DNA from: Antedon mediterranea
Taxonomy: Eukaryota > Animalia > Echinodermata
Direction of reading: 5' to 3'
Assembly: GCF_964355755.1 (NCBI RefSeq)
Contig: NC_092672.1
Span: 36,524,437 to 36,588,436, forward strand
Length of the DNA stretch: 64,000 nucleotides
The stretch's first letter is position 1. Each line of letters starts with the position of its first letter. A model generated the notes under the pieces. It was not told the DNA's origin. It saw only the letters and a list, made by a program, of their open reading frames with translations, and made no database searches. The translations under genes and the position numbers were made by a program. Positions 3,706-41,129 of this stretch are shown here, in pieces.

Positions 3706-4298
3706 TTTCCCGCTAGTAGAGACGCAACACAAGGACGTAAGTAAAGCGTGGTTCCCACTAGAACGCAACGCAGTGACGTATTGACGCAAAGTGTTGTATG
3801 GATTATTCGAACTGTCGCTTGTCATTAGTTCAACGCACTTAAGCGTGGTTCCCACTAGCGACGCAACACAAGGACGTAACGCAACGCAAGTGAATTGACC
3901 AATCACAAGCGATGGCTTATTCGCTTGTGATTGCTAACTGTTTATAACTTCACTTGTCATTGGTTAAAACGCTTGCGTTGCGTTTACGTCCTTGCGTTAC
4001 GTTCTAGTGGAAACCAAGCTTTACGTTGCGTTAACGTTCTTGCGGGCGTCCTAGTGGGAACCAATCTAAAGCTTGGTTCCCACTAGAACGTAACGCAAGG
4101 ACGTAAACGCAACGCAAGCGTTTTAACCAATGACAAGCGAAGTTATAGACAGTTAGCAATCAAAAGCGAATAAGCCATCGCTTGTGATTGGTCAATTCAC
4201 TTGCGTTGCGTTACGTCCTTGTGTTGCGTCGCTAGTGGGAACCAAGCTTTACGTTGCGTTAACGTTCTTGCGTGCGTCCTAGTGGGAACCAATCTAAA
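3706..4298. mobile_element. Cluster of nested Harbinger-like MITEs (family B, TIR AGCTTGGTTCCCACTAG)
   Basis: The copy at 3842-4020 has a TTA TSD and sits inside an older relative. An inverted copy lies at 4070-4248. Confidence 0.85.
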
Positions 4299-4889: not shown

Positions 4890-5066
4890 GCTCTGTCTAC
4901 ACTATCAAACTAATTTGACAAAAAGTGTGATGTGCCCAATATGGTAGGGATATACCCAAATATGGCAGTGATGTACCCAAATATGGTAGTGATATGACAT
5001 CATCGTGTCCATATATGGGTACATCACTTTTTTGTCACATAAAGTTTGATAGTGTAGACAGAGTTT
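4890..5066. mobile_element. Harbinger-like MITE, family A (TIR AGCTCTGTCTACACTATCAAACT)
   Basis: Palindromic ends with TAA/TTA-type flanks. Other full or partial copies lie near 15213-15420, 16192-16266, 16673-16822, 20154-20182, 24772-24812, 27762-27877, 28984-29146, 39262-39402 and 46660-46745. Confidence 0.8.
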
Positions 5067-5448
5067 TAGATGGCCAATGACATACTGCGTTCTCTATGCT
5101 TGCTGTATGTACAGTAGGTTATTATACCTACATGTAGTGTGTGTTTTAGTAGTACAAAGGTGAGACATGTGCATTTTATGGCCTTTTTAATATTTTAACA
5201 CGCTAGCTTTTTAACATAAATACTAGACTATCAAATAATAATGTGCACTACTAATCATTGGTTTATAGTTAAATCAAGACTATCAACAGCCTTACTAGAT
5301 GCAGCTAATTGTTTGGTCCAACAACCATTCGTAAAAAATGTATAAAAGATGATGGGTGTCGGCGTTGAGAGAACAGAGGTAGGCATACGTCATTCAACCG
5401 GTAGTTCGTGACACTGACGTATCCACTTGTGGTAGCCTACGTATTTTC

Positions 5449-5468
5449 TTAAGGCACTATGCCGTTGC
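5449..5468 (-). other. Orphaned original 3' end of the SEC14L2-like CDS (codons GIVP and stop TAA), displaced 9.1 kb by the transposon
   Basis: Joining 14599 to 5468 on the minus strand reads TGC AAC GGC ATA GTG CCT TAA in frame with the last exon. Confidence 0.8.
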
Positions 5469-5499
5469 AGACCTGGTCTCGATCGTAGTGCAATTATGC

Positions 5500-5660
5500 A
5501 GCTCAGAGTCTACAATAATCGTCCTCTGATTGGCCTATGTCTACAAAAGTCTACACTTGATTGGTCAATTGTCTACAATAATTTCACCAGTCTACAATAA
5601 ATGAACTGTGATTGGTTTACGTTGGATTACGTAGTTATGGTAATGAGGAGGCGGAGCATC
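5500..5660 (+). promoter_or_regulatory. Left subterminal region of the transposon: GTCTAC repeats interleaved with inverted CCAAT boxes and a GC-box-like motif; candidate transposase promoter and binding sites
   Basis: GTCTAC starts at 5508, 5539, 5549, 5571 and 5590. GATTGG occurs 3 times, and GAGGAGGCGGAG lies near 5645. Possible 5'UTR exons follow (donor near 5750; exon 6544-6578 bounded by AG and GTAAGT). Confidence 0.5.
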
Positions 5661-6874
5661 TTCATCAAAACATTGTGTTCGTCGCGAGCAACACATGTGT
5701 GTACTACATGCCTGAGAGCTGTCAAGGGAAGATTTTATGCTAAACTTTGGTAAATTTTTAAAGAATATTTAACTGCATAAAATTGGAACTTCCAACTACA
5801 TAAGCATTCAGCAATTATTAGTAATCAAATAATCTGGTTAAACATTGATAACACAGTGGAGCTTACGGCTTGCTACGGCAAGCAAAGGTTGTAATTAGAC
5901 TCCCTCCTGCTTCCATCAAGTAGGGAGTTGTAATTAGACTCCCTGCTTCAAGCAAGCCTTATACAATGGCGACCATGGTTATACTTGTAGCCTGTCGGCC
6001 TAGTAGAGTAGTAGGGCTGGTGGTAGGCGTACTCCTTGAAGTTGTGTTCTCCTGCGGCAGCCTACTTGCCAGACACCATCCAATCCAATGAATAAAGTAT
6101 AATCATGGAGTTATACCTCCATGGTATAATTTAATTTAATTCTATACCATACAAACAATAATATTTAAACCCATTGCATTAAATTGATTTTTATATTATT
6201 TAATAATTTATGAAATAATGTATTTTTTCCCCTAAAAGTAATTTAATGGTTTACTTCTATATGGACGGGCAAAGACAAAGTAACCTGCTATTCTATGTGT
6301 CGGGGTACAGACAAATATGGCGATGCAATAAATACAATTAAAGATTTCAGTCAGCCTATGCTACAAGTAAATGTATTTCAGGTAACAGATTTCAATAACT
6401 TTTTTATCACTTTGTAACATCTGACAATATCTTAATGTAAAAACATTTTTGAAATGGGATATGCTTTATGATGACAGTATATTTCACCATTTCTTATTTA
6501 TAATATATTTTTATATATTTATAATATATTTTTCATCTTGTAGGCCTTCATCTTCAATCTATTTCAGTCAATAACAAAGTAAGTATTTTTTGCCATTTTG
6601 CTTGACATACAAGGGGAATAATTATTTATTAAAAAACAGATACATTTTTATGCGTCATATACTTATTTTTGAAATATTTTTAGTTTAATAATAATTATGT
6701 TGGTACTCGATTATAATGTTCTTCCAATGTTTATGTAAGCACATTCAGCCAGTTTATGTTAAGAATTCTCTTAGAATCATTTTTATTACAAACCTTTTTA
6801 AATTTCTGAAAAGAGACATTATTGTTATTTATAACATTTTTCATTTCCGATTCAAAATATAGGAAGTCCAATAA

Positions 6875-9800
6875 ATGAAAATGCTTCCAAAATTGCGTGT
6901 TCATAATAAAAATATCCCAGCCAATAAACAGCAATGCACTCTGTCATGCACACGTGAAGCTTATGAATATGCAAAGTCAAAGAAAACGTTGGATATTTCA
7001 AAAGAAAGATTATTCAAAGAAGAAACTGGTTTCGAATCGGCTAGACAGGTACTACAACAATCAAGACAAATTATTAACCCATCCAGAATTCAATGCCTTG
7101 GAGAACTGGTCATTCCATTTGGGAAATATTGCAACCAAAATTTCAGATGGCTTTTAGAGAATGATGTTGGTTATGCAAAATAGTAAGTACAAATGACACA
7201 TGTTTTTAATGAAAATAGTTAACATACTGTTTATAAATGGGGTGAACCAGTATTGATATAGTTGGTTACTTTTCTTGTATGATTATGTTTTTTAAATATT
7301 GACAGACATTTTCAATATTAAATTTTTTTAGTGTTATTGACAAACATTTAAAAGAAAAAGTACACCCTGGACGCAAAGTCGAAATACGGGATGGCTGGCT
7401 GAAGGATATGCTTTATGAGTATGCCGAAATGTTTCCTCCTGTAAGCTCTCATCTGGAGAAAAATATAGACTACTGCATATACGGTCAGTTTGGCTTTAGT
7501 GATAAAACATACCTTGAGATGTGGGAACTGTATAACCGTCACAAGACTCGCAATCCTTTAGAAGAAATTGATGATTTGGCAAAACAGGCTTACAATTCTG
7601 TAAGGAAATGGATTCTCACAAAACCTAACTACATATCAACAGCTACCATGAAACGATTTAGATTGTATATTTTATCAAAGGATGAGGATGAGGTGATTAA
7701 CAAATATTGTCTTATATTTATATTTGTAGGTAAATATTTGTAAATAAAAAATTGAATTATAAATTGTTACTGATTTAAAAAAAAATTATATATTCCAGAA
7801 AACTGCTAGACTAGAACAAGATGAAACCAATCGTACAGATGAACAGCCATCAACAAGCACAAGCGACTCAGGTATGAATTAATGCATTACCAGAAATAAG
7901 TTGTTTTTTTTTTAAACAAATTTTATTTAAATACATTTCATTATTATACAGCAATCATTGTTTGCATTAATCTTTAAAAATTCCCTTAATGATTTTTGTT
8001 AAAATAAATTTTTTATGTTTTAGGACCACCATTAAGAAAATATTTAAAACAAATGCAGCATAGTTCGAATATTAAACAAAAGGCTACTGGACAACCTAAC
8101 ATTACAGATATTTCTAGTCAGGTAATTAATTCAAGGATGTCTGTTATATTAGCATTTACTACACATCCCTAAGTGTGTACATAGCATTGTCAATTTTTTT
8201 TTTATGATATATTCCAGAAAACTGCTAATTTTGTTAGTGCAGATGAACAGCCATCAACAAGCACAGCACAGCATAGTACGAACATTAAACAAAAGGCTCC
8301 TGGACAAGCTAACATTAGAAATGTTTCTAGTCAGGTAATTAATTCAAGAATGTCTGTTATATTAGCATTTGCTACACATCCCAAAGTATGTATAAGCATT
8401 GTCAATTTTTTTTTAATGATATATTCCAGAAAACTGCTAATTTTGTTAGTGCAGATGAACAGCCATCAACAAGCACAGCACAGCATAGTACGAACATTAA
8501 ACAAAAGGCTCCTGGACAAGCTAACATTAGAAATGTTTCTAGTCAGGTAATTAATTCAAGAATGTCTGTTATATTAGCATTTGCTACACATCCCAAAGTA
8601 TGTATAAGCATTGTCAATTTTTTTTTAATGATATATTCCAGAAAACTGCTAATTTTGTTAGTGCAGATGAACAGCCATCAACAAGCACAGCACAGCATAG
8701 TACGAACATTAAACAAAAGGCTCCTGGACAAGCTAACATTAGAAATGTTTCTAGTCAGGTAATTAATGTTTTATTTAATTTGTTATACTATCTATATTAT
8801 CTGTGACTCATACTATTTTCAAGCAAATATTTTAAAAATATATTATTATTATTATCATTAACATCATCATTATTATGTTGGTTCTTGTGTGTTTTTTAAC
8901 TCACAGCAGGTTATCTATGAAGGATGGTGCAAAAGCTGGGAAGATAATACCACCAAAGCATCTATACCACCTGAAGACCGTGATTGGTTAAAAAATGACC
9001 AGGATAGGGGAATGTTTGGTCCTGTTCAGATGTACACAGACATTAATGGTGCGCAGCAATACCGTCGTGTTCTGAAAACAGACAGAATGTGGTTTTATCC
9101 TCCAGACAGTCCAGGTCATGTTGGTGGTAGTCCTCCAAATGCTGATGCCTTTTTTCGATCCAGACTGTTCTTTTGGCGCCCAGTTGGTGTATGGAAGTAC
9201 AGCCTAAGATGTCCTCGAACAGATTGTCCTGGTAAAGATAAGCAGGTGTTTTTGTATAAAAGTGGCTACCACGGCAAATGTAGACATGTGTGTGACATCA
9301 ATGGTTGGTATAGTATGCTGACTGAAGTTCTTGCTTGTGGTCCTTGCAACAAGGCAGCATCAGCAATAGGTAAATCAAGCTCATCTAAATGGGGTCGATT
9401 CCTAGCTTGGGACAAATCAATATTGTCGCAATTGACGCCAGCACATCAGGCAATGTTTCCTGCAGTACTTACTGTTTGGTAAGTTAGTTACAAAATTTAC
9501 TCTTCAATTAAATATTAATTTACATATTACTTTCTTTTTATTTGAAAGCAAGACATTTACGGTACTCAAATTAACACTCTTCTTTCATTTCATAGTCGTG
9601 GTGTAGATAAGAAAGTGCTGCAACTCATGAAAGATCGGACTGAAGGCAACACAATGGCAAAAGTATGGCGTCAAGTCCAAGAGAATCATTGCGATGAATA
9701 TCTAAACAGAAAGGATATGTACACAACTCTGCTAATGGACTTGTTAAAGCCTGGAAGCATTGTTTCTTCATTTCGTACAAAATTCAAAGCTCCAAAGCAA

Positions 9801-12654
9801 CGTTGGCAACTCCCATCACCAAGACTTTTAAGACATGCTTTTTTGTTGGGTGAAGCTGATAAAGTAGAAGAATACAGAACACAAATTCTCTCAACATTTG
9901 GAAAGGTCCTGAAATTTGATTCAACTAAAAAGGTAAAACACTTTCATCCAAACAGAATATAAAATACAATATGAAATCCTCCTAAATCCTAAATTTTTCA
10001 TTTTTCCAAATTTGGTACAAATACAAGGATGAGGGTAAATTGCGTCAACTTTCCCCCTCTAAATCCAACTAATGGTAATCCTTATTTTATTTTAGATATG
10101 TAAAAAATTGTCAGGTGAAGGACGAGGGACTGCCGAATGGTGTACAAACATTGGTAATGAAAATAGCCAAATTGTAAGTTTTGTTTTCACATGCGAGGAA
10201 TCGACCAAAATGCTAAAACCCATGGCAGATGGTGTAATGGAGCGTTATAGGCTGGCAGGAGAAGATGCACCACAGCTTATGTATATAGATAGAGGATGTT
10301 GCCGTGAACATGGTGCAACATCAGTAGAAGTCCTCTTTAAAGATTGGGTGGACAATGGAATGGTGATAAGGCTTGATGCTTGGCACTGGATGCACAGATT
10401 TGATGCTGCTGTTCGTACCGACAGTCATCCAAAGTTTGGCCTTTTTAAGTCCGCTTTAGCAGGAGCCGTGTTCGCTTATAACAAGGCAGATATGGACCTC
10501 TTGGTAAAAGCTGTTCGTGCAGGCTCTGACGACAACTACAGTGGGTTATCAGATACAGAGTTGATACACCAGCGTATCTCATCATTGACTGTAAAACACT
10601 ACGTGCGTAGGATTACCCAGGGCAGCCAAGAAACATTTAGGCTTCTGGACTTTGCCATCGAAACTTTAAAAGGTAATGCTGGCCTCGATGAAAATGGAGT
10701 ACCATTATTCAAATCTGATGCTGCTATCGACGAGGTTTGGACACAACAACAGCGTCACTTAGAGTGCATACAGGATCCACCGAACATGCCCATGTATAGA
10801 GTAGCGAAGATCAGTTTGAAGAATGGAATTGACATTCCATATTACACATGCATGCGTGGCAATAACAGCCTTGAAGGTTTTCATAGTCATCTGCCAAAAA
10901 TGATACCAGGTTAGTAATAATACTGCAGTTTATGCATGTACTGTATACAATGTTAGAAGCTATCACCAATATGGAAATTTTTACAAATTAAGAACTATAG
11001 ATAAAAATATTGATTGATAAAGTTCTATGTATCCAAAAAGTTTTAAAAAAATATTTATTTTCAGGTCCTCATTGTGCAGCACGACCCTTCCAGGTGTATC
11101 TATTGAGTGGAATCGCAAGGTGGAACTCTGATAGGGAAGCAGAATCAGTTTTCGGCAGAAAAGGACGTCAGCATAGGGCATATTCGACCAGTTTAATGGA
11201 AAGATTGAACAAAAGATGCGAGAAGCTGTTTGGTGAAAAGGAGGAAAAGAATTTCCGCGTTCCTGCAAAGGCAACAAATGAATTACTTGGTCTTGAGTAC
11301 TTGTTTAACCAGTCAACAGCTTGCTCTGTTGAGGATTTAGAAGATACAGGCCCAAGTATGGAGGAAGAAGTATGCCTTGATTTGGATGATGGCGATGGTA
11401 TTGATGCTGGTTATGATTCCGAAACTGACACGTTCAACAACCATATGAAACCATGTCATGTTGTATATACATCTAAGGAAGCAGCGGAGTCCCACGATCC
11501 TTCAAGTGTAAGTTGATTTCATTATTTTTTTGTATTACAATGCAAACCTGTATACTTTAAATGGGGAATTTAAAAATTATTTCATGTTAGTTTAACTTGT
11601 ATCGATCACGATTTCACAGGAAGATGTCTGTATGAGTAAAAAACATCTCAAGGGATTTGAAAAGGTAGAAATTCTAAGCAACTTGCTAGTAGGCCTGGTT
11701 TTGGACAAGTTACCTATAATACCTTCAAACAAGAGAAAAGAGATTTTTCAAATGTGGGATAGCCTAGATTCACATGATAAATGCTACAAACATTTCCGCA
11801 CAGCTTACAAAACACAATGGGGAAATACCATGTATGGGCGAACAAAGGGTGATGAGATAGAAGCTTCCATAACGCAGCGAATAAAGCATCGCCATCGTTT
11901 CACGCCTGCGCAGAGCATTGATGTGCAGAGAAATCGTTTAATGTTTAGCATTATAAAGCATTTATGGTTACAGTACAGTAGCAATACACTGATTCTGCAG
12001 CGCTATCAGACTTTACAACAGCTTGTAATTGGTGATCCTGTGCTGGGAAAGCTTGGTATTCCACTGGGAAATATTAACTTGAAATGTATTCGAACTTTCA
12101 TACAGAGACAGCAAGCACTTGCTAGTGTCGGATCAACTGAGCAGAGCAGATACATCACAAAGAAAATGGATAGCATCTCAAATACAACTTTGCCGGCTGC
12201 ACCTGAATTCCCAGCGACACAGCCTGAAACTTCCTGGCCAGAAACAACCACTTACCCAGAAATTGAGTGTTTGGCAGGAACAAAAAAAATGAAAAACAGA
12301 ATTGACGAGAGTGATACAAAGAAAGGTGAATTTTCAAAACGAGATACAGCTCCAGTGACAGTGACCTTACCAACTAGTACACAAGTGGAACAAGCACCAA
12401 CGACGTCATGGGCAAGGTCAACCATGTTTAAAAGACGTACACAAGAAAAATCCGGTGAGATTGTTCTGAAAACAAAAAAGAGAAAAGAGGCCCTTCCAAT
12501 TTGTGCGCTGTGTTCCAAACCCATGCATGGCCATAAAAAATATAAGAAAAAAACGTGGTGCGAAGAAAGCAAGAAATCTACATCAAAAGGCCTTAAAACA
12601 ATTAACTTTAATAATTTTGAACATTTTAAAGAAATTGTCGATAATTTAGATTAG
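6875..12654 (+). CDS. Putative multi-exon transposase, about 1,463 aa: FGKY-motif N-terminus, Ser/Thr/Gln repeat linker, Cys-rich domain (DUF6729-like from memory), DDE core, C-terminal CxxC..H..C finger
   Basis: Twelve exons joined by GT-AG introns keep one frame: 6875-7182, 7332-7692, 7799-7871, 8024-8121, 8218-8334, 8430-8546, 8642-8758, 8907-9478, 9596-9932, 10096-10909, 11065-11507, 11620-12654. The sum is 4,392 nt with no internal stop. Candidate catalytic motifs are LKFDSTKK (D at 9918), MYIDRGCC (D at 10288), RLDAWHWMHRF (DxxH at 10375-10386) and RGNNSLEGFHSHL (E at 10873). Confidence 0.85.
8122..8766 (+). repeat. Tandem intron+exon duplication inside the transposase gene (about 212-bp unit, 3 copies)
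   Basis: Three identical 117-nt phase-0 exons at 8218, 8430 and 8642 encode KTANFVSADEQPSTSTAQHSTNIKQKAPGQANIRNVSSQ, each preceded by a near-identical 95-96 nt intron. Confidence 0.9.
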
Positions 12655-14311
12655 TTATGGACTCTTTTTTCATATTTAAATAGTATACAGTATATATAGT
12701 AGTATTATAATGAGGTGACATCGGGTATGAAGCGTCTCACATACACACAGAGCCAAAATGGCATCTTGGACTTGCACAGTGTATGGACTCTAACCTTACG
12801 GTTTTCATTAAATATATCATTCCACGCTATCATCCTAATTATCTGATTTTCAAACTTTTGCATTCCTCTTTTTTCATCTCATCCATTTTTTCTTGGTGAA
12901 AAGGGAGGATATTTTATATTCCTCCTCTGAGTTTATAGCCTCTCTACCCGAACACGAACAAGATAGTGACTTTTATAAGTCTGATTTTACACATAAAACT
13001 GTTTTCATTCATTACTGAATTCAAGATTGCATAACTTTAAACATTTTTAAAATGTAAATATTTAATGTAATTTAATGTAAATACGAAGATTCATTAGAGG
13101 GCACATAGAGTTATATTTATTTTGTTAAGTTGTTAATAGAGAAGAGAAAAAAACAAAAGTTTACTGTCTACAGAAGTCTGTGCACATGAGATAACTCTTT
13201 TATTTTACATTAATAGTTTTGTATTGCTAAGAGGCAATGAAATAATAATTGTGAACCGTTTATATTTTAATATTCTTAATTTGTTAACTTGTTACATAGA
13301 GAAGAATAAGAAAAACCAAAGGATTGTGTAGAAGTTTACACATAAGAAAACTATTTTTATTTTATGCTTGCATACTTTTAATTAATAATATAATTTTTAC
13401 AATTCAATAATGTTTAACGGCAACAAAATTGTTGAATCCTATACGTCGGTACTACAGGTATATTGTTTATTATTATTCAAGTACATCATTGGCAATGTAA
13501 TACTTTCGAACCGTTTTCTGTTTATATTTTAAATTAATCTTAATTTTTTAATTTGTTAGAGAAGACAAAGAAAAACAAAAGGATTGTATAGAGGTTTGCA
13601 CATTTAGTTTTTTATTATAATACAATTTTCACAATTCAATCCACAACAAATAGTGTGGAATAAAATCTATGCCTGTACTTATGCTAATATGTACAGTAAA
13701 CTTAATACTATTATTATTATACTGTATTATCTTCCCTGGTATTAATGTGTTGAAAATTGAAATATAGTTTCAATGTGATGAATTCCATTCACGTTTCATT
13801 TTAAAAAACAATTAGAAAAAGTTTAATTGTAATTGCTAAAATGTATACTACCTCTCTCTGGCCTACCTCATTGAAAAAGTACTAATTACGGGACATTAAT
13901 TAATATATGATGTGAGACTAAAAGTATCTTTTAATAGGCCTATAGATAATTATAAATAGAAAATGGGTAACTGTTTTTATTTTACACATGAACAGTATGT
14001 AATTATTGTTTTTATAGATCATTTATAATAAATATTTTAACAGTTGGCCTAGGCCTAACCTCTATCTGTGTATGCCTACACACTTTAAAATTCCGCCTAG
14101 GCCTACGATCAAATTTCTCAGGATATCAATAAAGCATTGTTTTACCCTCATCTAGAGACTAGTTACCTCTGAAAAAAGGAGATATATTTAATAATAAAGT
14201 TTTCAAATTTCAAGTAAAACTAAAAGTATTATTGATTCATTTATGCCGTTGTACGATGGTGGTTGCAGGAAAATGTACACAAACCCCCTGATTGGACAGC
14301 ATAAATAATGC

Positions 14312-14545
14312 TCATGAATATAACGTAGACTTCATGAATATAACGTAGACTCTCCATAGGCTTTTTTGTACACCTCATGAATATAACGTAGACTCTGACC
14401 TTCCTCATGAATACAACGTAGACTCTGACCTTCCTCATGAATATAATGTAGACTCTCAACCAATAGCAATACAGTAATTGCTCCACTGTGATTGGATGTT
14501 GTACAACAAATTCTAATTTTAATATCATGAATATAATGTAGACTG
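14312..14545. repeat. Right subterminal repeat array of the transposon (TCATGAATATAA(C/T)GTAGACT, 6 copies)
   Basis: Six near-identical 19-20 bp units, each carrying the reverse complement of the left-end GTCTAC motif. Confidence 0.85.
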
Positions 14546-17500
14546 TCAGCCAATGGCGCTACAGTGATTGCACGACGGGTGAACGGAGGTCTCGTTGCAG
14601 TGTTCCTTTGCTTTTGTCGTGTTTTCATTCATTGGTGGTCGCACTTCAACATTGTATCTTACACTTTTACTCTGTAGAATGTTGGTATTTTCAAATGTAA
14701 GCACATCTAAACAAAGAAGAACACTATTAGTTTAAATGTGTTTCTTTTTTCTTATTCGCACCCAAAAGCAACTTGCAAACTATAACTTATCGTGCCTAAA
14801 CTAAGTCTAAAATCATACATGAAGCTTGGTTCCACTAGAACGTATAGGCAAGAACGTAAACGAAACGCAAATAGTTTGACCAATCACAAGCGATGGATTA
14901 TCAGAACTGTCGCTTGTCATTGGTTAACTCCCCTGCGTTGCGTTACTTACACAGTCCAACTTGTATACAGACTATTTTCCCTGATTCTGGCACTTGGTTT
15001 GAGTTGTACTTTGCTTTTGACTGGATTATTTTCAAATCTTTCTCCTTCTCTTTTTCAGCTTTATTTTTCTTAAATATTCCAAATATGATTGCTTCATCCG
15101 AATTGAAATCCCAACTGAGGAAAATGTGAATAAAGAAGTACGATTAGTGTTGACATTGTCGATAAAGTTTAACATTGAAAAGAGTACTGTTGTTGCCCGT
15201 AGCGTAATGAGGACTCTTTTACAGCCTTGGGTACACTTTATGTGACAAAGCAATGTGATGTAACCATATAGGGACATGATGATGTCGTATCACTACCATA
15301 TTGCGGCATATCGCCACCGTATTTGGGCATATCGCCACCGTATTTGGGCATATCGCCACCGTATTTGGGCACATCATACTTTTTCTTGTCAAGCTAGTTT
15401 GATAGTGTAGACAGAGCTTTAGGCTTTTTTGTACATACCTTATAACTGAGTTTTCTTCTGTTATCTCTAGTTTGACGTAATGTGACGATTTAGAAGGTAT
15501 TGATACTTTTTGCAAATTTTCAATTTCTTGTAATTCTTTATTGACGTAGTACGATCGAGGTACTTTGCCACCCCAACATATCTATAAGAAATATAATTAC
15601 TATAAAGTAAATTGTAACTGTAAATGCACACACGAGAGTAGCCATCTCTTTCACGCATCTCGCAAATCGGGAGCATCTCATAAATCGGGCGCATCTTGAA
15701 CATCGAGCGCATCTCGTAAATCGGGCGGAAACTGTACATCGCAGCGCATCTCGTATATCGGGCGCATCTCGTACATCGGGCGCATCTCGTACATCGGTGT
15801 GTTTTCGATAAATTTGTTTTATGTTAAAGAATTTTTGCTCGAGGATTTTGCTAGCGTCTATATCTTCGTCGTCATTTTATTTATCTTTGCCATAGTAATA
15901 TTTGTCATATCTTCGTCAGAATTATTATAGTAATTAGGCCTACCATACCTCATCTTTACATTGCGGACAACCGTTTGAATCTGTTCTTGTCCCTCCGTAA
16001 GCTTTTGGTAGCTGGTCAGGATCGATATACTCTAGTAAAACCTGTAATTGATTACCTGTCGGTAATAATATAAGTTAAGTAACACAAATGTGCTATTAGA
16101 ACATTACACTTATAATAAACATTATGTTAGTCTCCCAAAATAATCTACCTAAATATACTTATTGTGTGCTTTCAATCTATCGTCGTGTGTAAGCTCTGTC
16201 CACACTATCAAATTTGATGTGACTTTTTTTTTCAAACTAGCTAGTTTGATAGTGTAGACAGAGATTAAGGTCGAGTTGTTCTCAGTTTCGATACAGTTTT
16301 ACGGTGTCTTGTAAAATAGATATAGTTTCAAAATGACAAGGCCTATTGTATATCCATCCACTCTTCTTTTAATATTATATTTAATATTTACTTTTGAGGA
16401 ATTTGATCTTGTGTGTTGTGTCTTCACTTAGAAACGGTTTGATTAAACTGAAACCCGCAGATACCATACTTGGAGCTGTAAATTGAAAATATGCATTTTA
16501 TTTTACTTTCGGCAAACAATCAAACAACAACATTAATGCAAAGGGGTAAACATAATTGATTGAGCATCAAAGAGAAAACTAGACAAGAGTGTTATTAATA
16601 ACTCCAGACTGGTTGTAAACAGAATTTGGTTTACAGCACTATAAATATTTGCGTCGAGCGCAGCGTGGAGTAAAGCTTTGTCTACACTATCAAACTAGAA
16701 GTGTGATGTGCCCAACTATGGTGGTGATATGCTCACATATGGTAGTGATGTGACATCATCAGGTCCATATATGGGCACATCCAATTTTTGTCACATAAAG
16801 TTTGATAGTGTATACAGAGCTTAACACAATTAGAAGTTTGTATTGATGGGTTAGTTAGATTAACATAATAGGCCTAAAGCCTAGCCTCTAAATTTGAATG
16901 TAGTGTTGTTGTCGAATTAGTTCAGTTCATGCAAATCATCACAATAAATATTATAGTATACTGAAAAATATAGATTACCATTTAGTACAAAACATATTTT
17001 AAGTACTTCTGGGTAGTTGGCCTCAAACATTGTAAAAGCGGCATTGTACGCATCAACTAACGGTTGCCATATATGGTGATATTCAATTGTATCAAGATCA
17101 ACAATTACAATGACGTCATCAACAATTTTACCAAGCTAAAAAAATTAAATTATAATAATATTAGATCAGAGACGTACGTTTCTGATTTAATAGTATATGA
17201 AGATTCATGTTTTTGCTAAATAAATGTGAACACTTGAATTGAATATAAGTATGACACGCTATGTGTGCCAACAAAACTTTCTCTTTTAAGCAGAATCGTC
17301 GTCGTCGTCTTGTTTACCTTTTTCGATTGTTCTTGAAAATCTTTCAATATTATTTCACAAAATTTAGTTTTGTATCGGACAAAATCCGACTTATTACAAG
17401 ATCGAACTATGCCTTTTGGATCTATACGCCCATACGGTTCGATCCAGATGATACCCCCATCTTTGTGATGCCCGCATATTCCACCCGGCATGTACTTTGG

Positions 17501-20500
17501 CAAAACCTAGAAAAATAGGAAATTGAAAATAATTAGTATAGTCCTAATGTTTTATTAGTGTGTGCTTATTGTATGTGGTAGGCCTATACCCGGTCAGTCA
17601 ACTTATCGAAAATAAAATTAAAATCGTAGTTGTTTCTACAGATAGTAACGCACGTGTTTAGTTTTCATATCTGAAATTATTTTGCGTCCTTATCACCACC
17701 TCTCGTCCTCATCACCACTTACTCGTCCTCATCATCACTCTCGTACTCATTTTCACCACGTTCATTGACACCGTGTCTTTCTCACCATACTCCTGCGTCC
17801 TCATCACCACCTCTTCCTCATCACCACCTCTCGTCCTCATCATAACTCTCGTTGTCACCACGATATCAATATCACCACATCTTTCTCACTATCACCACCC
17901 CGTCCTCATTATCACCACCCCGTTCTCATTATCATCACACCGTTCTTTTTATCATCACCACCCGTCCTCATTATCACCACCCCGTCCTCATCATCACCAC
18001 CCCGTCCTCATCATCACCACCCCGTCCTCATCGTCACCACCCCATCCTCATTATCACCACTCCCGTCCTCATTATCACCACTCCCGTCCTCATTATCACC
18101 ACTCCGTCCTTATTATCACCACTCCCGTCCTCATTATCACCACTCCGTCCTTATTTTCACCACCTCCGTCCTCATTATCACCACCCCGTCCTCATCGTCA
18201 CCACACCCCCTCCTCATGATCACAACTCCGTTCTCATCACCACCCCGTCCTCATTATCACCACTCCCGTCCTCATTATCACCACTCCCGTCCTCATTATC
18301 ACCACTCCGTCCTTATTTTCACCACCTCCGTCCTCATTATCACCACCCCGTCCTCATCGTCACCACACCCCCTCCTCATGATCACAACTCCGTTCTCATC
18401 ACCACCCCGTCCTCATTATCACCAACCGTCCTCATTATCACCACCCCGTCCTCATTATCACCATCCGTCCTCATTATCACCACGTCGTATACTACCACAC
18501 CATCATCACCACGGAATAAACATGTAGTATACAACACTATCCATGTTCGTCATGTATACGATCATTTCATGCACTGTGCTCCTATCATCGTAACGCTATC
18601 CTCATCCTTATTATTCTACCTACTCCATGTTAGTTAGCATAGCTTACCTCGGGCGGATTCCAATCTAGAATCCCATCTATATTCATCTGTTTTCTGAATA
18701 TTAGATGCTGTGAATATGAATTAAAGACTTTTTTCTTAGGCGTATTCATAGGTTTTTTTATATGCTATATCGATTACACGCTATATCGATTACACGCATT
18801 CGGTAAAATAATTTATTCAATTCATTTATTTAAAAAAAACAACCTCCACAAACAAATAAGTACAGATTATATTTTGTTTTAGATACCTAACTTCTCAGTA
18901 CTTCTTCAGTCTATTGTAACTCATGAATTTGTTTTTACTTCACCAATGAATAAACATCTTAACTACATTGAATAAAACAGTTTTAACTGTGTCTATTTGT
19001 ACTCATTGTGTCTATTTGTACTCATTGTGTCTATTTGTACTTATTGTGTCTATTTGTACTCATTGTGTCTATTTTTACTCACGTCTCTTAACATTTTCTC
19101 GGATTTTGACAGGTCGAACTTGCGAGCTGTAATAAGATGATACGTTCATTATGTTATTATTTTTATTTTATTTTATTTCATACTCATCCAACAGCGAGTA
19201 ACCCGCCAATTACAGGATGGATAAACTATTTAATAATTTCACAAGACAAACATATAAACAAGATGCTCTACATAAACAAAGACTTATTATTAAGTCTTTG
19301 GGAGTGGAGTTGTAAATTGTCATGAGAAAAAAACCCTGACTTGAACCCAGGACCCTTAGATTGGTAGCCAAGCATCATAACCACCAAGCCACAACGCTAC
19401 TCCACTCCATTACTGTGTAATGATCTCAGTTAACTTTTGTTATTACATTTTTTTCTTGTTCATCTACTGATCCTCTGATATATGGTTGATCAGGGCAGTA
19501 AGAAATTGATTTAATGGTCGTTTGTATTAATATTATTAAATTGGGTGGTTGCTTGATGATTTAGTTTTGTAATCGATCAATCACTTGATTGATTGATTGT
19601 GATCGATTAATTTATTATTATCAATTTTATCAATACCTCGTAGCCATCTCAGAAGGTAATGATCATCGTGACGAGGTGAAAGGTCATCAGAAAGGTTTTG
19701 ACGAAACTATAAGACAAAAAATATTTAAATAGTGTGAAACTAAAAGCAAATCAACTAATCGTTTAAATGTAATTCTTGTTCATTTACAGTATTGTAATTG
19801 AACCATTGTTTAGTTCTATTTATTCTTGCGCTTTTGGCGTTTCATAACAAGCTATTTAGTGTATAAATAAGCCTATTTGTACCAGCAAAGTAGCTGTGGC
19901 AGATTAATGTAATAGCAACTGGCTCATTTATTTTTATCGTCTGCTAAAGCTTGCTTGCATTTATTGCGCCAATACTGAGAATGACCTTTCGCTTTTTACC
20001 AGAAGGTCTTCTTCGCTTGATCACTGGGGGGAGGGGGAGTCAGGGAATGGTTTACAGTAGCCTAACCCATGCACGTACAAAATGTCAAATTTAAATGGTA
20101 ACCTTTTTCATGTAATAGTAAATTGATCAATAGGTAATTGTTCCAAAGTCTAAAGCTCTGTTTGATAGTGTAGACAGAGTTTAAGGGATATCGTAAGGAT
20201 ACTTATCCAGCGTGGCCTGTCCAGTGAATATAAAAATCCCGGACTTTTATTAAAAAGAAATTAACATTCAAGGTTTTTTTCTTTTAATATTTAATGCGTT
20301 TCATTACAGCAGTTGCTTTATCCACACAAAGCAGTAATCCATACCACTTAATAGGGTACCATGGACACAATATTATCACTTCATAAGTTGATAATTGTAA
20401 CTTAGATTATAATTATTGTATTGCTCGTGTTTAATATAGCTTATCAAATAATAAATTTAGGCTTTTTTTCAATAATAATTGTCCAGACTTTAATATTCTT

Positions 20501-21701
20501 GTATATATAAAAAACCGACATTACATTAAAAGTCGAACAAGTCTAAAAATGATAGCATAGGCCTACATTATAAAAGCCAAGGGCTTATAATACAGTATAC
20601 ATACTCATAGGGCTAAATAGGCAGCGCATCAAAATGAATTTGCATAACATTTAGAGAGAATATAATTTATATTGATAATCTGGGATAGACCTACTTGCGT
20701 GTTTATTTCGAATGCTACATTGTATTTCTTTGAGCATCTGGTTCTCGCGTGTGACACGCAAGGCAGCATTATATTTAAGTAATAATATTGATGCCGCTAT
20801 CGGCATACACTGTTGATGATGTACCAATTTCTGACGTAGGCCTACATGAACATTGCTGAACTGTTACTTTCATTAACCATGAATTGGCATCGGTCATCGG
20901 GTCCAGGAATAGGAGCGGAGTTTACTTCCGTATTTCTTATATAAGTCTCGACTTAAGTAAGGTTAATGAACCTATAATATTACATAATGTGTATAAGGAA
21001 ACAACATAAACCATTATATTCAGAACAACAACGATTTTACTTCTCATTTAAAAAAGAATAAACAGCCGATAGGATAATTAGGCTATGTCGCTGTCATGTC
21101 GAGAGTAGCTTACCGTAATAAAACTGTATATTCCTAGGCCTAGTAGGCCTATAATGTGAGCGAATTATTGTTGTTTTCTTTGTATTATTTAATACTTAAT
21201 AGATGGCCGGTGGAAATCAAAATATGATGATGATGATCATATGATATGATATATATTTGTTATTTTGCAAGCCTATTAGTATTGATGCGGATCAAAGTTG
21301 TAATTAACAAATGGCGCAAAAGATAAAGGTCTGACCTTAATTTACTAAGTATAGGTAGGGCCTACTTATATATAGGCCTATATTAGCACAGCTAAATAAC
21401 AATATGTGACCAATAAGGCCTAATTAATTTAAGTAATACCCGATTCATAATATCAATAAATGTATCATTTCGCATTGTACGCTATGCAAAATTAAGCTCT
21501 TAAAAAAAATCATTATAGTAGTAGTAGGTATAGGCCTACGTATCACCATTTAAAATTACCACTACCTTCCGCGGTCTAAGTCTGTCAGCCTTCGTCACCA
21601 TCCCCACAGTTTCATATCCTACCCAGCCTGTGTATACTAACACTTACTTCATTTAGCTTCTTCTGTTGTTGCTCCGAAAGATCTCCTACACGGCCACTCA
21701 T
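14546..21701 (-). CDS. SEC14L2: SEC14-like protein 2 (CRAL-TRIO + GOLD lipid-transfer protein), about 410 aa, with a C-terminus supplied by the transposon end
   Basis: Exons: 21648-21701 (MSGRVGDLSEQQQKKLNE), 19637-19706 (..DDHYLLRWLR), 19083-19126, 18648-18707, 17318-17506, 16979-17135 (..FEANYPEVLK), 16392-16475, 15949-16055 (IDPDQLPKAYGG), 15439-15581 (ICWGGKVPRSYY), 14951-15114 and 14546-14706. All introns are GT-AG and the frame is consistent. The N-terminus matches the MSGRVGDLS start of the SEC14L2/3/4 family; the exact paralogue is uncertain. Confidence 0.92.
15653..15798. repeat. 18-bp tandem repeat (GCGCATCTCGTACATCGG), about 8 copies
   Basis: Degenerate direct repeats in SEC14L2 intron 8. 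Confidence 0.8.
17685..18485. repeat. C-rich 20-21 bp minisatellite (CCCGTCCTCATTATCACCAC) in SEC14L2 intron 4
   Basis: Direct tandem units, including a larger internal block duplication. Confidence 0.9.
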
Positions 21702-22351: not shown

Positions 22352-25300
22352 ATGTCGGTGAGCTTAGAAGAGTACTTTAGGACGACATTTGAGGATAAAC
22401 TCCTCGTGTAAGTTTTGCTTGTTTTGTCTGAAGAATTATAAAACTAGCCTCCTTCCTACCTATCCCGACCTAACTAGGCCTAGCTAGCCTAGGTAGGCCT
22501 AGCTAGCTAGTTAAGTTAGGCCCTCCCTTGGCCTGCCTGGCTAACTAGATGATAGAGCTAGATAGCCTTGAATAAGAGGCCTAGTTGATGATGCTGAGTA
22601 GGCTACTCTAAGATAGGCCTAGAGGGTAGTAAGGATTAGGATAAGGCCTAAGGCTTAATAGCAGTATGAATATAGGCCTAGGCCAGGGGGCCTAGCCTAT
22701 ACTAGTCTAGGCCTAGGCCTATATGCTTCATAAATGTCAAACTCAAATGACTCTAAAAACTAAAGTAAGAATAAGATAAAAAGAAAGATTAAGAATAGCA
22801 ATAATGTAATGTTCAATAACAGCATGTACTAGTAGGCTAGGCTCTAAGCCTCTATTATACTAATAATAATATTATTATGAAACCAATCAATATAGTATCT
22901 TTTTTATTTCATAGCAAAATGCCAGAGAGGGAGGATGATCATTTAACTCCAGCTACTCGGTTACTTGAGAAAAGACGAGAAATGTCAGAAGTTGAACAGG
23001 CTTTAGCTGCACAGAAAGAGGCAAGTGAATAAAGTGAACCACTCTCACATGGTACATATTTTATGTGAACCACTCTCACATGGTGCATATTCTATGTGAA
23101 CCACTCTCACATGGTGCATATTCTATGTGAACCACTCTCACATGGTGCATATTTTATGTGAAACACTCTCACATGGTGCATATTCTATGTGAACCAATCT
23201 TTAATCCATTTCCAGTTTCCTGACTTTCTGATCTGTAATCATTTCTGAAATACACTGTATTACAGTAAAACTTCTTAATTTTGCTAAACTTGTATTTATT
23301 CAGGAGTTTCAGATGAAGATGGAAAGCCTGCAACAACGAAGAGAAGAATTAGAAAGAAAAGAATACCAATTAAAGGAATCGCTACTCAAGTTTGATAAAT
23401 TTCTGAAAGTAAGGAAAATTAGAATATAGATTATCGGTAAAGAAATATCATGCTTTATAAGACTTATATTTTAACACTACACCTATTCAGGAGACACCCA
23501 CATTAAAAGGGCACTTTCATTTTTTTTTTTTTTTTTTTTTCATTTCTTTATTCGAATTCATAAAATAACACAACATAAAAAAAATACAAAGAATGAATTC
23601 AGGGTAACACAAAAAAGTAACCAAAGGTCAAACTTATTTCCATTGTGGCCCTTAAGGATAAAAACACCATAAGAATAAACATTTACAATAAACAATAACA
23701 CATGTAGTAACAATATAAATATAAATTATAATCTTTCAAGCATAACCTCTTTGAGATGTTTCCTGATATTTCTTTTGAATTGATTGATGGTTTCTGAACA
23801 CTGTATCAATTTTGGCAGGTGATTCCATGACGTTATTGCCGTGTTAACAAAGGTTGTTTGGGAGTGGTTACCTATATATGGTCTATAAATTGATTGAGTT
23901 GCAAATCTAGTATTGTACTGGTGAATTACATTTGCTCTACTAATACCATCATTCATAAACGTAGGGCTTAATCCATTAATAATACGATACATGTGACAAA
24001 GTTTTATCTGTTTAACTCTTAAGTCTACTGGGAGCCAATTCAGTTTGTTTAATTCATTAGCCCCAATGTGATCCCTTGGTTCAAGACCAAGAATACATCT
24101 GACCGTCTTATTTTGTGCAGTTTGCAATTTAACTTTTAATGTTTTATTGGCTCTCAAAGGTGTTCTCTTATAGGTGTGAGGTTCTACTGTATTCAAGATT
24201 ATTTACATTTCTTATTTTATCTACCGGTACCTCAAAACCACATTGTACCACAAACCAATAAAATAAACCTAGAGAATGTTTTTGCTATCTTCCAAATCTT
24301 CTATACTGTGAAAATAAATTCATTAGAATAATAATTAAATTCTACTTCTGAAAATCAATTTTTCATTTATAGGAAAATGATTCAAAAAGATCAAGAGCTG
24401 TGAAGAAAGCAGAAGATGAGAAAGAACACAAGAAAACAAAAGATAAAGAGATAACGCGGCTTTTAGAGGAGAAGGGCGAGTTGGAGCAACAACGCAATAA
24501 GTTTATGATGCGGTTGGAGAAACGCAAGATATTTAATACGTTTCTTGATCGCGTGTTGGAGTCAGCAGAAGAGTTTCAAGAATCACGGGATGTGATAGCT
24601 AGATTTGAGACACTTGTAGCAACACATAAGGTATTAACAGCTTGATTTAGCCTAGTTGAGGAACTGTACAGGGGACACCATTTTGCTTGCCCAAACTAGA
24701 TTGACTAGTTCTGTGTAAGATTTTAATCTCCAAATAGCTTTAAGTCATTCTTATGTCATACTACTTACCTAAAGCTCTGTCTACATTGTCAAACTTTATG
24801 TGACAAAAAAAATGTTTTTTTTTATTTATTTATTTTTTAAAATTTATTTATTTTTTAACATTTATTTTTTTTTTTTAATTTATTGATTTTTTAAAATGTA
24901 TTTATTTGTTTTATTTCATACATTCATATATGTAATATTTGTTTCAGGATTTAATGGATAAAGCTAGCAAATCCCAAGACGCAGTAGACGGTCACAAAGC
25001 AGAGCTGATGAAGTTTACCGAGGAGAAGAACAATGAGATATTAAGTCACAATAATCAACTAGCAATGTTACAGACGAGGCTGGACACGGCTCAGGGAGAT
25101 GCTGTTAAATGGTAACAAACTTTAATCTGTGAAATCGGTGAAACTACAGTATTAAGATAAGATAGTGACTTGTAGACGCTCCTGTGCGATTTCCAAATTG
25201 CATTTCGTCTAATTTAGGCGCGATCTTGGGTTTTATCCATGACGAGGCAAAGTGTTCTAGCATGCGTACAAAAATTGGTGTAATGGATATGGGTCTGATT

Positions 25301-28300
25301 TGATTTAAGTTAACCGGTCCTTTCACTTTAGGAAGTGGGGTTATGGTCGCCTCTTTCCACTTGCGCGGGACTATGCCTTGCGAGAGTGATGCGTTGTAGA
25401 TGTCAACTAACGGTGATGCAATTTCAAATGCGAATTCTTTGATGGCGCGAGGCGGTAGATCACCCGGGGCAACTGATTTGTTGCAGTTTATTTTCTGAAG
25501 CTGATGATACACCTGCCAGAAGTTGAGTGTCGGTGCATAGCCACAAGGAAGGTATGATGGTAGACTATTAGTTTGTAGGGGTTCAATCTTCTGGCATATA
25601 TTCGCTAGGTAGTTATTTATTAGTTCGCAAATTTTAAGCGGATCGGTTTCTTCAGTTTCTAGATTCAACACCGATTTCTTTTTATTCGTACCGCATATTT
25701 GGTTAACTTTTTGGAACCACTGCTTTGCGTTAGTGTTTTGCAGATTGTTAACTTCGTATTTGTAGTATTTAATCTTTGCTTGTTTGATTTCCCAAATTAC
25801 TTGGTTTCTAAGTGTACGGAAATTGCGGGACATTTTTCCATATTTATGAAAACTAATTTGTCTCTTCTTACAAAGTCCTTTTATTTTTGGTGTGATCCAT
25901 GGTTTGTCATTTGAATGAACTTTAATTCTGCGCTTTGGAAAACAACGTTCGTATGCCAGACATAATGTTGATTCGAAAATATTTACTTTTTCATCAAGGT
26001 CGTCGGTTTCCAGTATTTCATGCCAATCTTGTGATGTTATCCATTGACCAAATCTATTGCAAGCAGATTCGCTAAAAGGCCGGGGAGACTTAATAACATT
26101 GCGGCCCTTAATGCAGACGAATCCAGGTTTTGGTTTCCATAAAATCGAATTCAATCATTATGCAGAATGTAATGTATATCTTTAAAAGAGATGATATACA
26201 TTATTTAATACTTGATTAAAGGTCGTATAAAATATTGAATTCATGCTTGATATTACATTTCTTGAATAATTCATATTTACTACAGTATTTCTTCACACAA
26301 TTTTCTAGTGATTATAACTAAACTCTAGAGGGCAGATGACAATTTTTTATGTTCATCAAAGCAAATTCTCACTGTAAAGAATGTGTATTTCACAGTGAAA
26401 AATTAAATTATAAAATTTATTAATATTAGATTTTTTAAATAAATAATTTAATTTATTATACAGAAGTTCTCCTTTTGGACACCCCTATTTAGGGCCATAG
26501 CCAGCATGAGCACTACCTTGTCTTAGGGACACCCCTATTTAGGGCCATAGCCAGCATGAGCACTACCTTGCCTTAGGGACACCCCTATTTAGGGCCATAG
26601 CCAGCATGAGCACTACCTTGCCTTAGGGTACATTGGACACCCCTATTTAGGGCCATAGCCAGCGTGAGCACTACCTTGCCTTAGGGACACCCCTATTTAG
26701 AGCCATAGCCAGCATGAGCACTACCTTGCCTTAGGGTACATTGGACACCCCTATTTAGGGCCATATCCAGCATGAGCACTACCTTGCCTTAGGGACACCC
26801 CTATTTAGGGCCATAGCCAGCATGAGCACTACCTGGCCTTAGGGACACCCCTATTTAGAGCCATAGCCAGCGTGAGCACTACCTTGCCTTAGGGACACCC
26901 CTATTTAGGGCCATAGCCAGCATGAGCACTACCTTGCCTTAGGGACACCCCTATTTAGGGCCATAGCCAGCATGAGCACTACCTTGCCTTAGGGTACATT
27001 GGACACCCCTATTTAGGGCCATAGCCAGCGTGAGCACTACCTTGCCTTAGGGACACCCCTATTTAGAGCCATAGCCAGCATGAGCACTACCTTGCCTTAG
27101 GGTACATTGGACACCCCTATTTAGGGCCATATCCAGCATGAGCACTACCTTGCCTTAGGGACACCCCTATTTAGGGCCATAGCCAGCATGAGCACTACCT
27201 GGCCTTAGGGACACCCCTATTTAGAGCCATAGCCAGCGTGAGCACTACCTTGCCTTAGGGACACCCCTATTTAGGGCCATAGCCAGCATGAGCACTACCT
27301 TGCCTTTTGGACACCCCTATTTAGGGCCATAGCCAGCATGAGCACTACCTGGCCTTAGGGTACATTGGACACCCCTATTTAGGGCCATAGCCAGCATGAG
27401 CACTACCTTGCCTTTTGGACACCCCTATTTAGGGCCATAGCCAGCATGAGCACTACCTTGCCTTAGGGTACATTGGACACCCCTATTTAGGGCCATAGCC
27501 AGCATGAGCACTACCTTGCCTTTTGGACACCCCTATTTAGGGCCATAGCCAGCATGAGCACTACCTGGCCTTAGGGTACATTTTCCTGTTGAAAATGAAA
27601 TAGTCCAACCCCTATTAAGAAGACACTGTTTTGGATCCCTACCTTTTGTATGTATTATATTAATGTTGATATCGTTTTCTTAGGGAATCTGTGTGGACAC
27701 ATATTAAGAACACAGCAGCCAAGAAGACTCTACTCCTTGGCAGAATTAAAATGTAAGTTTAAAGCTATGTCTACACTATCAAACTTTATGTGACCAAAAA
27801 ATGGGAGCATATCACTACCCTATTTGGGAACATCACACTTATTTTGTCAAACTAGTTTGATAGTATAAACATAGCTTAATGATTGTACTTCTAGGACGTT
27901 AGGGCGTAATCACAATGCAAGTAAATTGACCAATTACAAGCGGTGGTTCGCATGATCCTTAAGATTACATTTGTTGCACATATTTTCTTGCGTTGCGTCC
28001 TCTCATAGTAACTACTTAATATTCTGTCATTCAGATTAAGGCTTGATTTTAAGTAATTTGTCAAGTTAAGTTGTTTTAATTTAACCCCAACATGAGCCAC
28101 TTAAACATATCTCTTGTCACTGCTTATAGAGTTGTTATTTTTCCATAACCTTTTAATTGGTTGTCTCTTACGTTTGAAATTTTCATTTAGTTCTAGCAAA
28201 CATACTTGTCAACTAATGCATTTTATTGTTAGCTAATAATGTTATTATTCTAACACTAATAATGATAAATAATATTGTATCAAGGTCATAACATAACTGT

Positions 28301-38755: not shown

Positions 38756-39967
38756 TTATATGTGCTGCGTGCAATATTCTTCTATGTTTTAATAACTACT
38801 TTACAATTTCAATATGTAACTCTGCGCATGCTCGTAATGTTTCTGAGCGTGTGTAGAATGACTTTACGACTCGACATCTGCGTGGTCGCGTTGTGCATCG
38901 TGGAAGCGAAATGTCGCAACTATTATGTAATAAAAATTGTTGCTTTTAATAGAGAGTGATAGGGATTAAATGACGATAGTGATATGATGTGGGATTAGCC
39001 GATTTATCTTATATATCATATAGGGATTAGGAGTGTATTTTGTACATACTATTCGCAATTGAGAGATACACTTTGCAGGAGATTACGTTAATGAGTTGCT
39101 TCTAATCGTTTTCAGATTACAGAGCACTCGAAGAAATGGAAACATCATTACAACGACAGCAGGAAGAAATCAATTCCATTTCAAACATTACATTTTCTCT
39201 CAGTAAATTGTAGAAAAAATATGTAAAAACGCGTGAAAGTATAATTTAGAAAGTGTGATCTAAAGCTCTGTCTACACTATCAAACTAGTTTGACAAAAAA
39301 AGTGTAATGTGCCCAAATATGGTAGTGATATATGACATCATCGTGTCCATATACGGAAACATCACATTTTTTTGTTACATAAAGTTTAAGTGTAGACGGC
39401 TTTAAGCAATGTTTATGCTCTAAAAATCAAAATAGGTTACTTAGTTATTGCGATATAGGCCTACATATAAGCGTGAGATGATGGTAGGCCTACACTAAAG
39501 GCTTGTTCACACTATACCTAGGTGGGATTCACAGTTTAACACTGCGCAGCTGTTCGCGATTCGAGCGTTTGATTTTTCGCAGTTATATTTTGTTTTCATA
39601 GCATCATCGGCGGTTTACACTGCATTGTGCTCCTATACTTTGTTAGTAGAGGATACATTTTCGTCACTCGGACCTCAAATGTAATATGACGACTTCGCTG
39701 TACGCAAATGTGTCTATTTAGCTCTGTTGGGAATGAATATTTAACTATAGTACATGTTGAAGTGTACTTGAATGAAGATCCATTGCAGAGTAAATAATAG
39801 CGCACGTTCTTCGTGGCCCGCCATAGTTTCATCATCAGCAGACGATAACTAGGTCGGTAACACTCGGCTACTGTGTGTTGTATTTTGGTTAATGTGACAA
39901 TTTGCTTCATTTTGTGTTTTTCATTTTCGTATTAAAACTGTGGCTTGGGAGCGAATAAAGCTACTGT

Positions 39968-40281
39968 AGGCTTTATTCCCACTAGGACGCCATGGAAGGA
40001 CGTACGAACAACGCAAGTAATTTAACAATCGCACAAACAAAAGTTCGGATTTTCTGTCGCTTATGATTGGATAAATTATACATTTGCGCGCGTAAGCTTG
40101 GTTCCCACTCAAGGACGTAGAGACGCAGCGCAAGTGAGTTGGCCAATGACTAACGACAGTTTGAATAATCCATCGTTTGTGATTGGTCGAATCATCTTTG
40201 TGCTTTTACACTGCGTCTCTCTAGTTGGAACCAAGAATTACTTTTACGTCCATGCGTTACGTCCTAGTGTGAACAGAGCTT
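39968..40281. mobile_element. Nested family-B-related MITEs (inner copy about 40095-40236)
   Basis: Outer ends are TTCCCACTAGGACG and CGTCCTAGTGTGAA. Inner ends are GCTTGGTTCCCACT and CTAGTTGGAACCAAG. Confidence 0.65.
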
Positions 40282-40972: not shown

Positions 40973-41129
40973 TTGGTTCCCACTAGAGACGCAACACAAG
41001 GACGTAATGCAACGTAAGTGAGTTGCCCAATCACAAACGATGGATTACTCGAACTAACGCTTGTCATTGGTTAACACGCTTGCGTTGTGTTTACGTCCTT
41101 GCGTTACGTTCTAGTGGGAACCAAGCTTA
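40973..41129. mobile_element. Family-B MITE
   Basis: Reads TTGGTTCCCACTAG ... CTAGTGGGAACCAAGCTT. Confidence 0.8.

Follow-up and report, generated by a model that had tools for sequence, protein, structure and literature searches.

Dada transposons are described as a target-specific superfamily that spares single-copy genes, and they have been proposed as vectors for safe-site delivery. According to the text of the 2013 description (PMC3706591), their transposases combine DDE and DxxH signatures with a CCCC zinc finger at the N-terminus and a CCHC one at the C-terminus, and no terminal inverted repeats were found. For the elements that insert into U1 snRNA genes (Dada-U1), the same text gives an apparent duplication of 8 bp that is likely one of 6 bp, with GTGCAAT and ATTGCAC equidistant from it. 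In the sequence data of a 2022 survey (PMC8869645), as read by eye, GTGCAA follows 17–19 nt after the 5' end in 11 of 12 fish Dada-U1 elements, and 10 of 11 visible 3' ends have TGCAC plus 19 nt. Some Dada copies have one end outside the target (PMC3706591 and PMC8869645, in their texts), and one of the five Dada-tV_OL copies lies, with both ends intact, in a hAT element (described in PMC8869645). As that survey, by its own account of the selection, kept only copies flanked by small-RNA genes (PMC8869645), families without such targeting would be missed.

We analysed a stretch of 64,000 nucleotides (hereafter, the window) from the crinoid Antedon mediterranea. We consider the more interesting part of this locus to be the apparent presence of a U1-lineage Dada, with short terminal inverted repeats, in a protein-coding exon; the original prediction had noticed the insertion without naming the type of element. 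From an intact U1-lineage copy in a coding exon we conclude that the specificity is leaky, or that it was lost in this lineage, and the copy gives a target site to set beside U1 as well as a transposase, apparently intact, that can be assayed. Our literature search found no report of a crinoid Dada or of one in a coding exon, which is weak evidence of absence because Repbase and subscription journals were outside its reach.

The element and its host gene

The features of the locus, in window positions, are:

14546–21701, minus strand: SEC14L2-like gene, 11 coding exons, 410 aa including the element-derived tail
21701–21648, 19706–19637, 19126–19083, 18707–18648, 17506–17318, 17135–16979, minus strand: SEC14L2-like exons 1–6
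16475–16392, 16055–15949, 15581–15439, 15114–14951, 14706–14546, minus strand: SEC14L2-like exons 7–11
5469–14592, plus strand: Dada-superfamily DNA transposon, assigned to the U1 lineage; runs antisense to the host gene over 9,124 bp
5469–5494, plus strand: left end, starting AGACCT, with GTGCAAT at 5488–5494, 19 nt from the duplication; GTCTAC/ATTGG repeats continue to about 5600
14567–14592, plus strand: right end, with ATTGCAC at 14567–14573, then 19 nt, finishing AGGTCT
6875–12654, plus strand: transposase gene, 12 GT-AG exons, 1,462 aa in the chosen model, intact
6875–7182, 7332–7692, 7799–7871, 8024–8121, 8218–8334, 8430–8546, plus strand: transposase exons 1–6
8642–8758, 8910–9478, 9596–9932, 10096–10909, 11065–11507, 11620–12654, plus strand: transposase exons 7–12
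5463–5468, plus strand: likely target-site duplication CGTTGC, left copy (apparent 8-bp repeat 5463–5470)
14593–14598, plus strand: likely target-site duplication CGTTGC, right copy (apparent 8-bp repeat 14593–14600)
5449–5462, minus strand: displaced native gene end, the rest of GIVP plus TAA; the native 3' UTR is likely leftwards of it
14546–14592, minus strand: element-derived end of the reading frame, ETSVHPSCNHCSAIG plus TGA; host base 14593 supplies the E codon's first base

All introns in the 11-exon model of the SEC14L2-like gene are GT-AG, and its translation is 410 aa. The host protein is of the SEC14L2/3/4 type, with CRAL-TRIO-N, CRAL-TRIO, and then a GOLD beta-sandwich. In Pfam, CRAL-TRIO-N and CRAL-TRIO were matched and the GOLD model gave no match to this protein; the beta-sandwich was placed at residues 279–380 from the predicted structure (mean pLDDT of 87.5) and from the alignment to 1OLM (E = 4.5e-111, residues 1–391). 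A fold search agrees with the SEC14L2/3/4 type, and the combination of CRAL-TRIO with a C-terminal beta-sandwich is common to the host protein and the SEC14L2/3/4 (supernatant protein factor) family.

Between the repeats, a plus-strand gene that matches DUF6729 encodes the transposase. Exons of its low-complexity linker are ambiguous, with open models spanning 1,405–1,473 aa, and the chosen model has no internal stop or frameshift. This open model contains the motifs FDSTKK, YIDRGC, DAWH, and SLEGFH, in agreement with the Dada DDE and with a DxxH after the second D. (Catalytic roles were assigned by motif order and spacing against the text of PMC3706591, not against its alignment.) Both zinc fingers are present, the N-terminal CCCC as CPRTDC...CGPC and the C-terminal CCHC as CALC...H...C. 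The 9,124 bp and the 12 exons fit the usual form of Dada elements (4.7–11 kb, with introns in the transposase gene), and the 8-bp direct repeat, resolving to 6 bp plus AG, fits their 6–7-bp duplications. Among 1,826 candidates, 67 were homologous to the transposase at E ≤ 0.001, the best being from Patiria miniata (69%). One of them (P0035), a homologue from a fish Dada, is labelled as non-toxic nonhemagglutinin type D, which is likely a mis-annotation. A scan of prokaryote genomes gave one weak match of 46 residues, which we set aside. Within the transposase gene, a 212-bp exon-intron unit is repeated 3.4 times at 8056–8767 (97% matched), each copy giving the linker one 117-nt in-frame exon.

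The ends of the element carry GTGCAAT and ATTGCAC at 19 nt each, a pattern common to the fish entries (in the published data that we compared) and to L001, a relative discussed below. On the plus strand of the 64 kb, GTGCAAT occurs three times and ATTGCAC five times, with one of each exactly 19 nt inside the element ends; two of the four matches to AG-N17-GTGCAA on both strands of the window are the element ends. The placement of these motifs is more than chance. The right end is complementary to the left at 18 of 26 bases, including a perfect 6-bp terminal inverted repeat, so the element departs from other Dadas in having a short terminal repeat, which is partly made of the subterminal motif. 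Subterminal repeats of 20 and 30 bp lie at 14312–14456, near the right end.

As far as they are described in the texts and data of PMC3706591 and PMC8869645, Dada-U1A_DR, Dada-U1B_DR, and the fish Dada-U1 elements share with the Antedon copy the DDE with DxxH, the CCCC and CCHC fingers, the introns, and a length of about 9 kb. Fish Dada-U1 elements also share the duplication (apparent 8 bp, likely 6 bp) followed by AG, the motifs 19 nt in, and a transposase that is antisense to the target gene. In contrast, their duplication is ATTCGC rather than CGTTGC, and their visible 3' ends finish in GCC in 8 of 11 cases and in TCT in none of the 11 (data of PMC8869645), whereas the Antedon copy finishes in TCT, which gives it the 6-bp terminal repeat. 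Finally, those fish copies lie in U1, and the Antedon copy lies in a protein-coding exon of a crinoid.

The transposase appears to be closest to elements inserted in U1. We examined 20 metagenome loci and ran Rfam on 11 of them. Of the relatives with a visible end, L001 is the closest (70% identity over 272 aa), and its left end lies in a U1 gene at the standard site; the U1 match scores 62.7 bits, below the gathering score of 69.5, because the U1 gene is interrupted. This left end aligns with the left end of the window element, and the right end of L001 is beyond its contig. By comparison, L012 is 46% identical to the window transposase and ends in a 5S gene (Rfam). The coding sequence of Dada-U1_BeSp has, by eye, the same motifs as the window transposase. 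A quick tree of 64 rows (the window, 10 of the 20 loci with at least 150 residues matched, and 53 of the 67 proteins with at least 240 matched) put the window in no well-supported group, with a root that rests on long branches, so the lineage call rests on identity and end motifs. L001 (noted at positions 51–224) is a Dada-U1 element with its left end in U1, and L012 (noted at 8303–8425) is a Dada-5S element with its right end in 5S. The 11 Rfam runs also gave one chance miRNA match.

The insertion site and the annotated isoforms

On the minus strand, exon 11 of the SEC14L2-like gene (14706 to 14546) reads ...KEHCNETSVHPSCNHCSAIG, followed by TGA at 14546–14548; that is, KEHCN is host sequence and the frame then runs into the element, as the original prediction had it. 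Removing the element and one copy of the duplication (9,130 nt) restores ...KEHCNGIVP with TAA at 5449–5451, a protein of 399 aa, again as predicted, and this is the annotated isoform X2. Thus, an exonic insertion that interrupts the last codons of the gene is borne out. The predicted boundaries of the element hold with one refinement: the direct repeat at both junctions is 8 bp (CGTTGCAG, at 5463–5470 and 14593–14600), but the true target-site duplication is likely 6 bp (5463–5468 and 14593–14598), with the element then at 5469–14592. The original prediction also argued that 399 aa is close to the usual length for the family. The figure of 399 aa is exact, but the argument is weak, as the stretch after the last GOLD strand is unconserved across 67 homologues and measures 5–29 residues (median 21), versus 20 in X2 and 31 in X1.

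We rule out an assembly artefact as the source of the insertion, given a clean duplication, end motifs that are both in register, and an open transposase. Orthologue C-termini had been named as a check on the empty-site reading, and the nearest orthologue, from Anneissia japonica (74% identical), ends in the same NG-x3-stop pattern. Its last residues are SNGAIS versus CNGIVP, with the N-G pair across the junction, so the empty reading is ancestral and the duplicated bases are the host's.

A search with the last exon returned one 399-aa protein, SEC14-like protein 2 isoform X2 of Antedon mediterranea, which ends in KEHCNGIVP. Three isoforms are annotated on the one contig: X1 with 410 aa, X2 with 399 aa, and X3 with 358 aa (XP_071944524-6). 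X1 is identical to our 11-exon model, X2 is the translation of the empty site, and X3 is a suffix of X1. A protein with either C-terminus is therefore already in the annotation, and for the 410-aa form, expression is a matter of annotation only.

When every single gap between exon 11 and a position downstream of it within the window was tried, 9 alone yielded X2. Each is 9,130 nt and slides within the 8-bp repeat, and GT-AG, GC-AG, or AT-AC ends occur in none of these registers. Likewise, 16 candidate donors and 1,502 acceptors within the window gave no canonical route to X2 with one or two introns. Splicing of the element as a spliceosomal intron or an introner is ruled out by these results within the window.

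In the NCBI pipeline, a gapped model like X2 needs a transcript alignment. X1 could come from a genome-only prediction. As X2 needs a 9,130-nt gap without canonical splice ends, and in part because of how the pipeline works, we infer that it is likely a transcript of the empty allele. So, although the annotation lists X1 and X2 as isoforms of one gene, this suggests that they are more likely the filled and empty alleles.

A probable off-target insertion and its alternatives

Dada-U1 elements insert at a standard site in U1 snRNA genes, but the flanks of this element are SEC14L2 codons, and the window holds no RNA gene, with neither an Rfam match nor a tRNA. The empty site matches 8 of the 13 bases in the published U1 target, and 236 of 109,676 window positions do as well; against the L001 variant of the U1 target, 161 window positions match as well as this site. 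Also, GTGCAAT, which U1 carries 19 nt from the cut, is absent from the host flank. The weak target match and the missing GTGCAAT would fit a family with relaxed targeting as well as they would fit a rare error. The nearest precedent is Dada-tV_OL in hAT-N16_OL (PMC8869645, Fig. S1), which, as presented there, is a full-length Dada that, like the Antedon copy, sits in no RNA gene and has a duplication at each end; it differs in belonging to another lineage and in having a transposon as its target, versus a host coding exon here.

We think that the insertion is probably a recent and still polymorphic off-target event, by an intact U1-lineage Dada, and that the new tail is near neutral. A position beyond the last folded domain would explain why the insertion is tolerated, and two identical duplication copies, together with a transposase free of internal stops and frameshifts, point to a recent event. 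We propose that GTGCAAT, 19 nt in from either end, is where the transposase binds, and that its cuts are staggered by 6 nt. The insertion site may have been chosen for a weak resemblance to the U1 target core (TxGCAG...TC), and in the same orientation as in U1, with the transposase antisense to the gene. RNA from the empty allele, when aligned across the element, would give a false 9,130-nt intron and hence isoform X2, and in the filled allele the native 3' UTR would be replaced by element sequence, convergent with the transposase transcript.

An alternative that we consider unlikely is that the element belongs to a U1-derived Dada family in which targeting of small-RNA genes was lost or relaxed, with symmetric AGACC ends and many TGCAG-like sites, so that the SEC14L2 copy would be normal for the family. 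This would account for terminal inverted repeats (a perfect 6 bp, with 18 of 26 end bases complementary) where the text of PMC3706591 describes Dadas with none, and for the weak target match and the host flank without GTGCAAT; such a family would have been missed by the small-RNA-gene filter that the 2022 survey reports (PMC8869645). However, the window holds only this one copy, with no second copy or derivative in the 64 kb; the closest relative with a visible end is in U1; and the end motifs and orientation of the U1 type have been kept. We are similarly doubtful that there is an active crinoid family of U1-lineage Dadas that no longer targets small-RNA genes, has acquired symmetric termini, and goes into ordinary genes. 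If there is, then the contrast with a U1-targeting relative that is 70% identical would locate determinants of Dada target choice. Less probable again, in our view, is a fixed or homozygous insertion from which the 399-aa form arises later, through precise excision in somatic cells, removal from RNA without the spliceosome, or a template switch of reverse transcriptase at the 8-bp repeat. X1 and X2 are indeed annotated on the same contig, the gap ends within a short direct repeat, and the transposase is intact, but none of the 9 registers is a spliceosomal intron, and a template switch would need a 9.1-kb transcript that reads past 16 AATAAA/ATTAAA hexamers between 14523 and 12612. Moreover, heterozygosity for insertions is common in outbred marine invertebrates.

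The remaining alternative concerns the tail, whose richness in Cys and His the original prediction had highlighted. The insertion swaps the last 4 residues of the host protein for 15, including 2 Cys and 2 His, and these might form an H-x2-C-x-H-C cluster that binds metal, or the last five residues (CSAIG) might serve as a prenylation signal that re-targets the lipid carrier to membranes. Just 240 of 13,057 open shuffles (1.8%) are equally rich, the tail of 31 residues is longer than in 67 of 67 homologues, and it has a Cys 5 residues from its end; some five-residue CaaaX peptides are farnesylated (as described in PMC11121372). Yet 186 of 3,737 open 15-codon windows on that strand of the element (about 5%) are as rich, and Cys-Asn-His-Cys is what the subterminal GTGCAAT and the bases that follow encode in this frame; as it derives from the element's own end motif, it implies no function. 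Residues 386–410 are predicted to be disordered (pLDDT < 50), tails are not conserved in the family, Gly is not among the tolerated terminal residues that are named in the relevant part of PMC11121372, and the empty form is still annotated. We find a functional tail very hard to credit, and we do not share the emphasis on its composition: the C-terminal swap is an ordinary consequence of an exonic insertion. The accompanying claim that the GOLD domain is intact agrees with the predicted structure, in which the last strand is at residues 371–380 and the junction is at residue 395.

Returning to the off-target insertion that we favor, its likelier effect is on the RNA, with the native 3' UTR probably pushed 9.1 kb away and element sequence in its place. 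The native AATAAA hexamers (at 4863, 4655, 4555, and 4466) are displaced by 9.1 kb, and a transcript on the host strand now first meets hexamers at 14523 and 13981. The hexamers of the transposase are at 13659–14193 on the opposite strand, so the host and transposase transcripts could overlap.

Other features of the window

A spliced coiled-coil gene lies head-to-head with SEC14L2 at 22352–25085 (plus strand), with open exon frames near 22352, 22912, 23299, 24370, and 24945; we take it to resemble the CCDC42/CFAP73 family. A short inverted-repeat element with internal 21-bp repeats, likely a MITE family, is abundant in introns and intergenic DNA, and there is a second inverted-repeat family, whose copy at 3841–4249 has 188-nt arms that are 96% complementary:

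4935–5069, 15235–15422, 16699–16833, 24761–24810, 27760–27877, 28984–29125, 39260–39331, 46675–46725: likely MITE copies
3841–4249, 40123–40194, 40973–41131, 43979–44082, 44415–44598, 14875–14943: second inverted-repeat family

Tandem arrays occupy 32215–36670 (an 80-bp satellite, about 56 copies) and 26477–27576 (a 50-bp unit, about 21 copies). Open frames at 23726–24202, 25144–26154, and 44172–44507 (minus strand) are presumably pieces of reverse-transcriptase ORFs of the LINE type, and the two scanned against Pfam gave no match. Finally, positions 49618–51181 (minus strand) encode a rhodopsin-family GPCR in two exons (7tm_1), which we presume to be adenosine-receptor-like.
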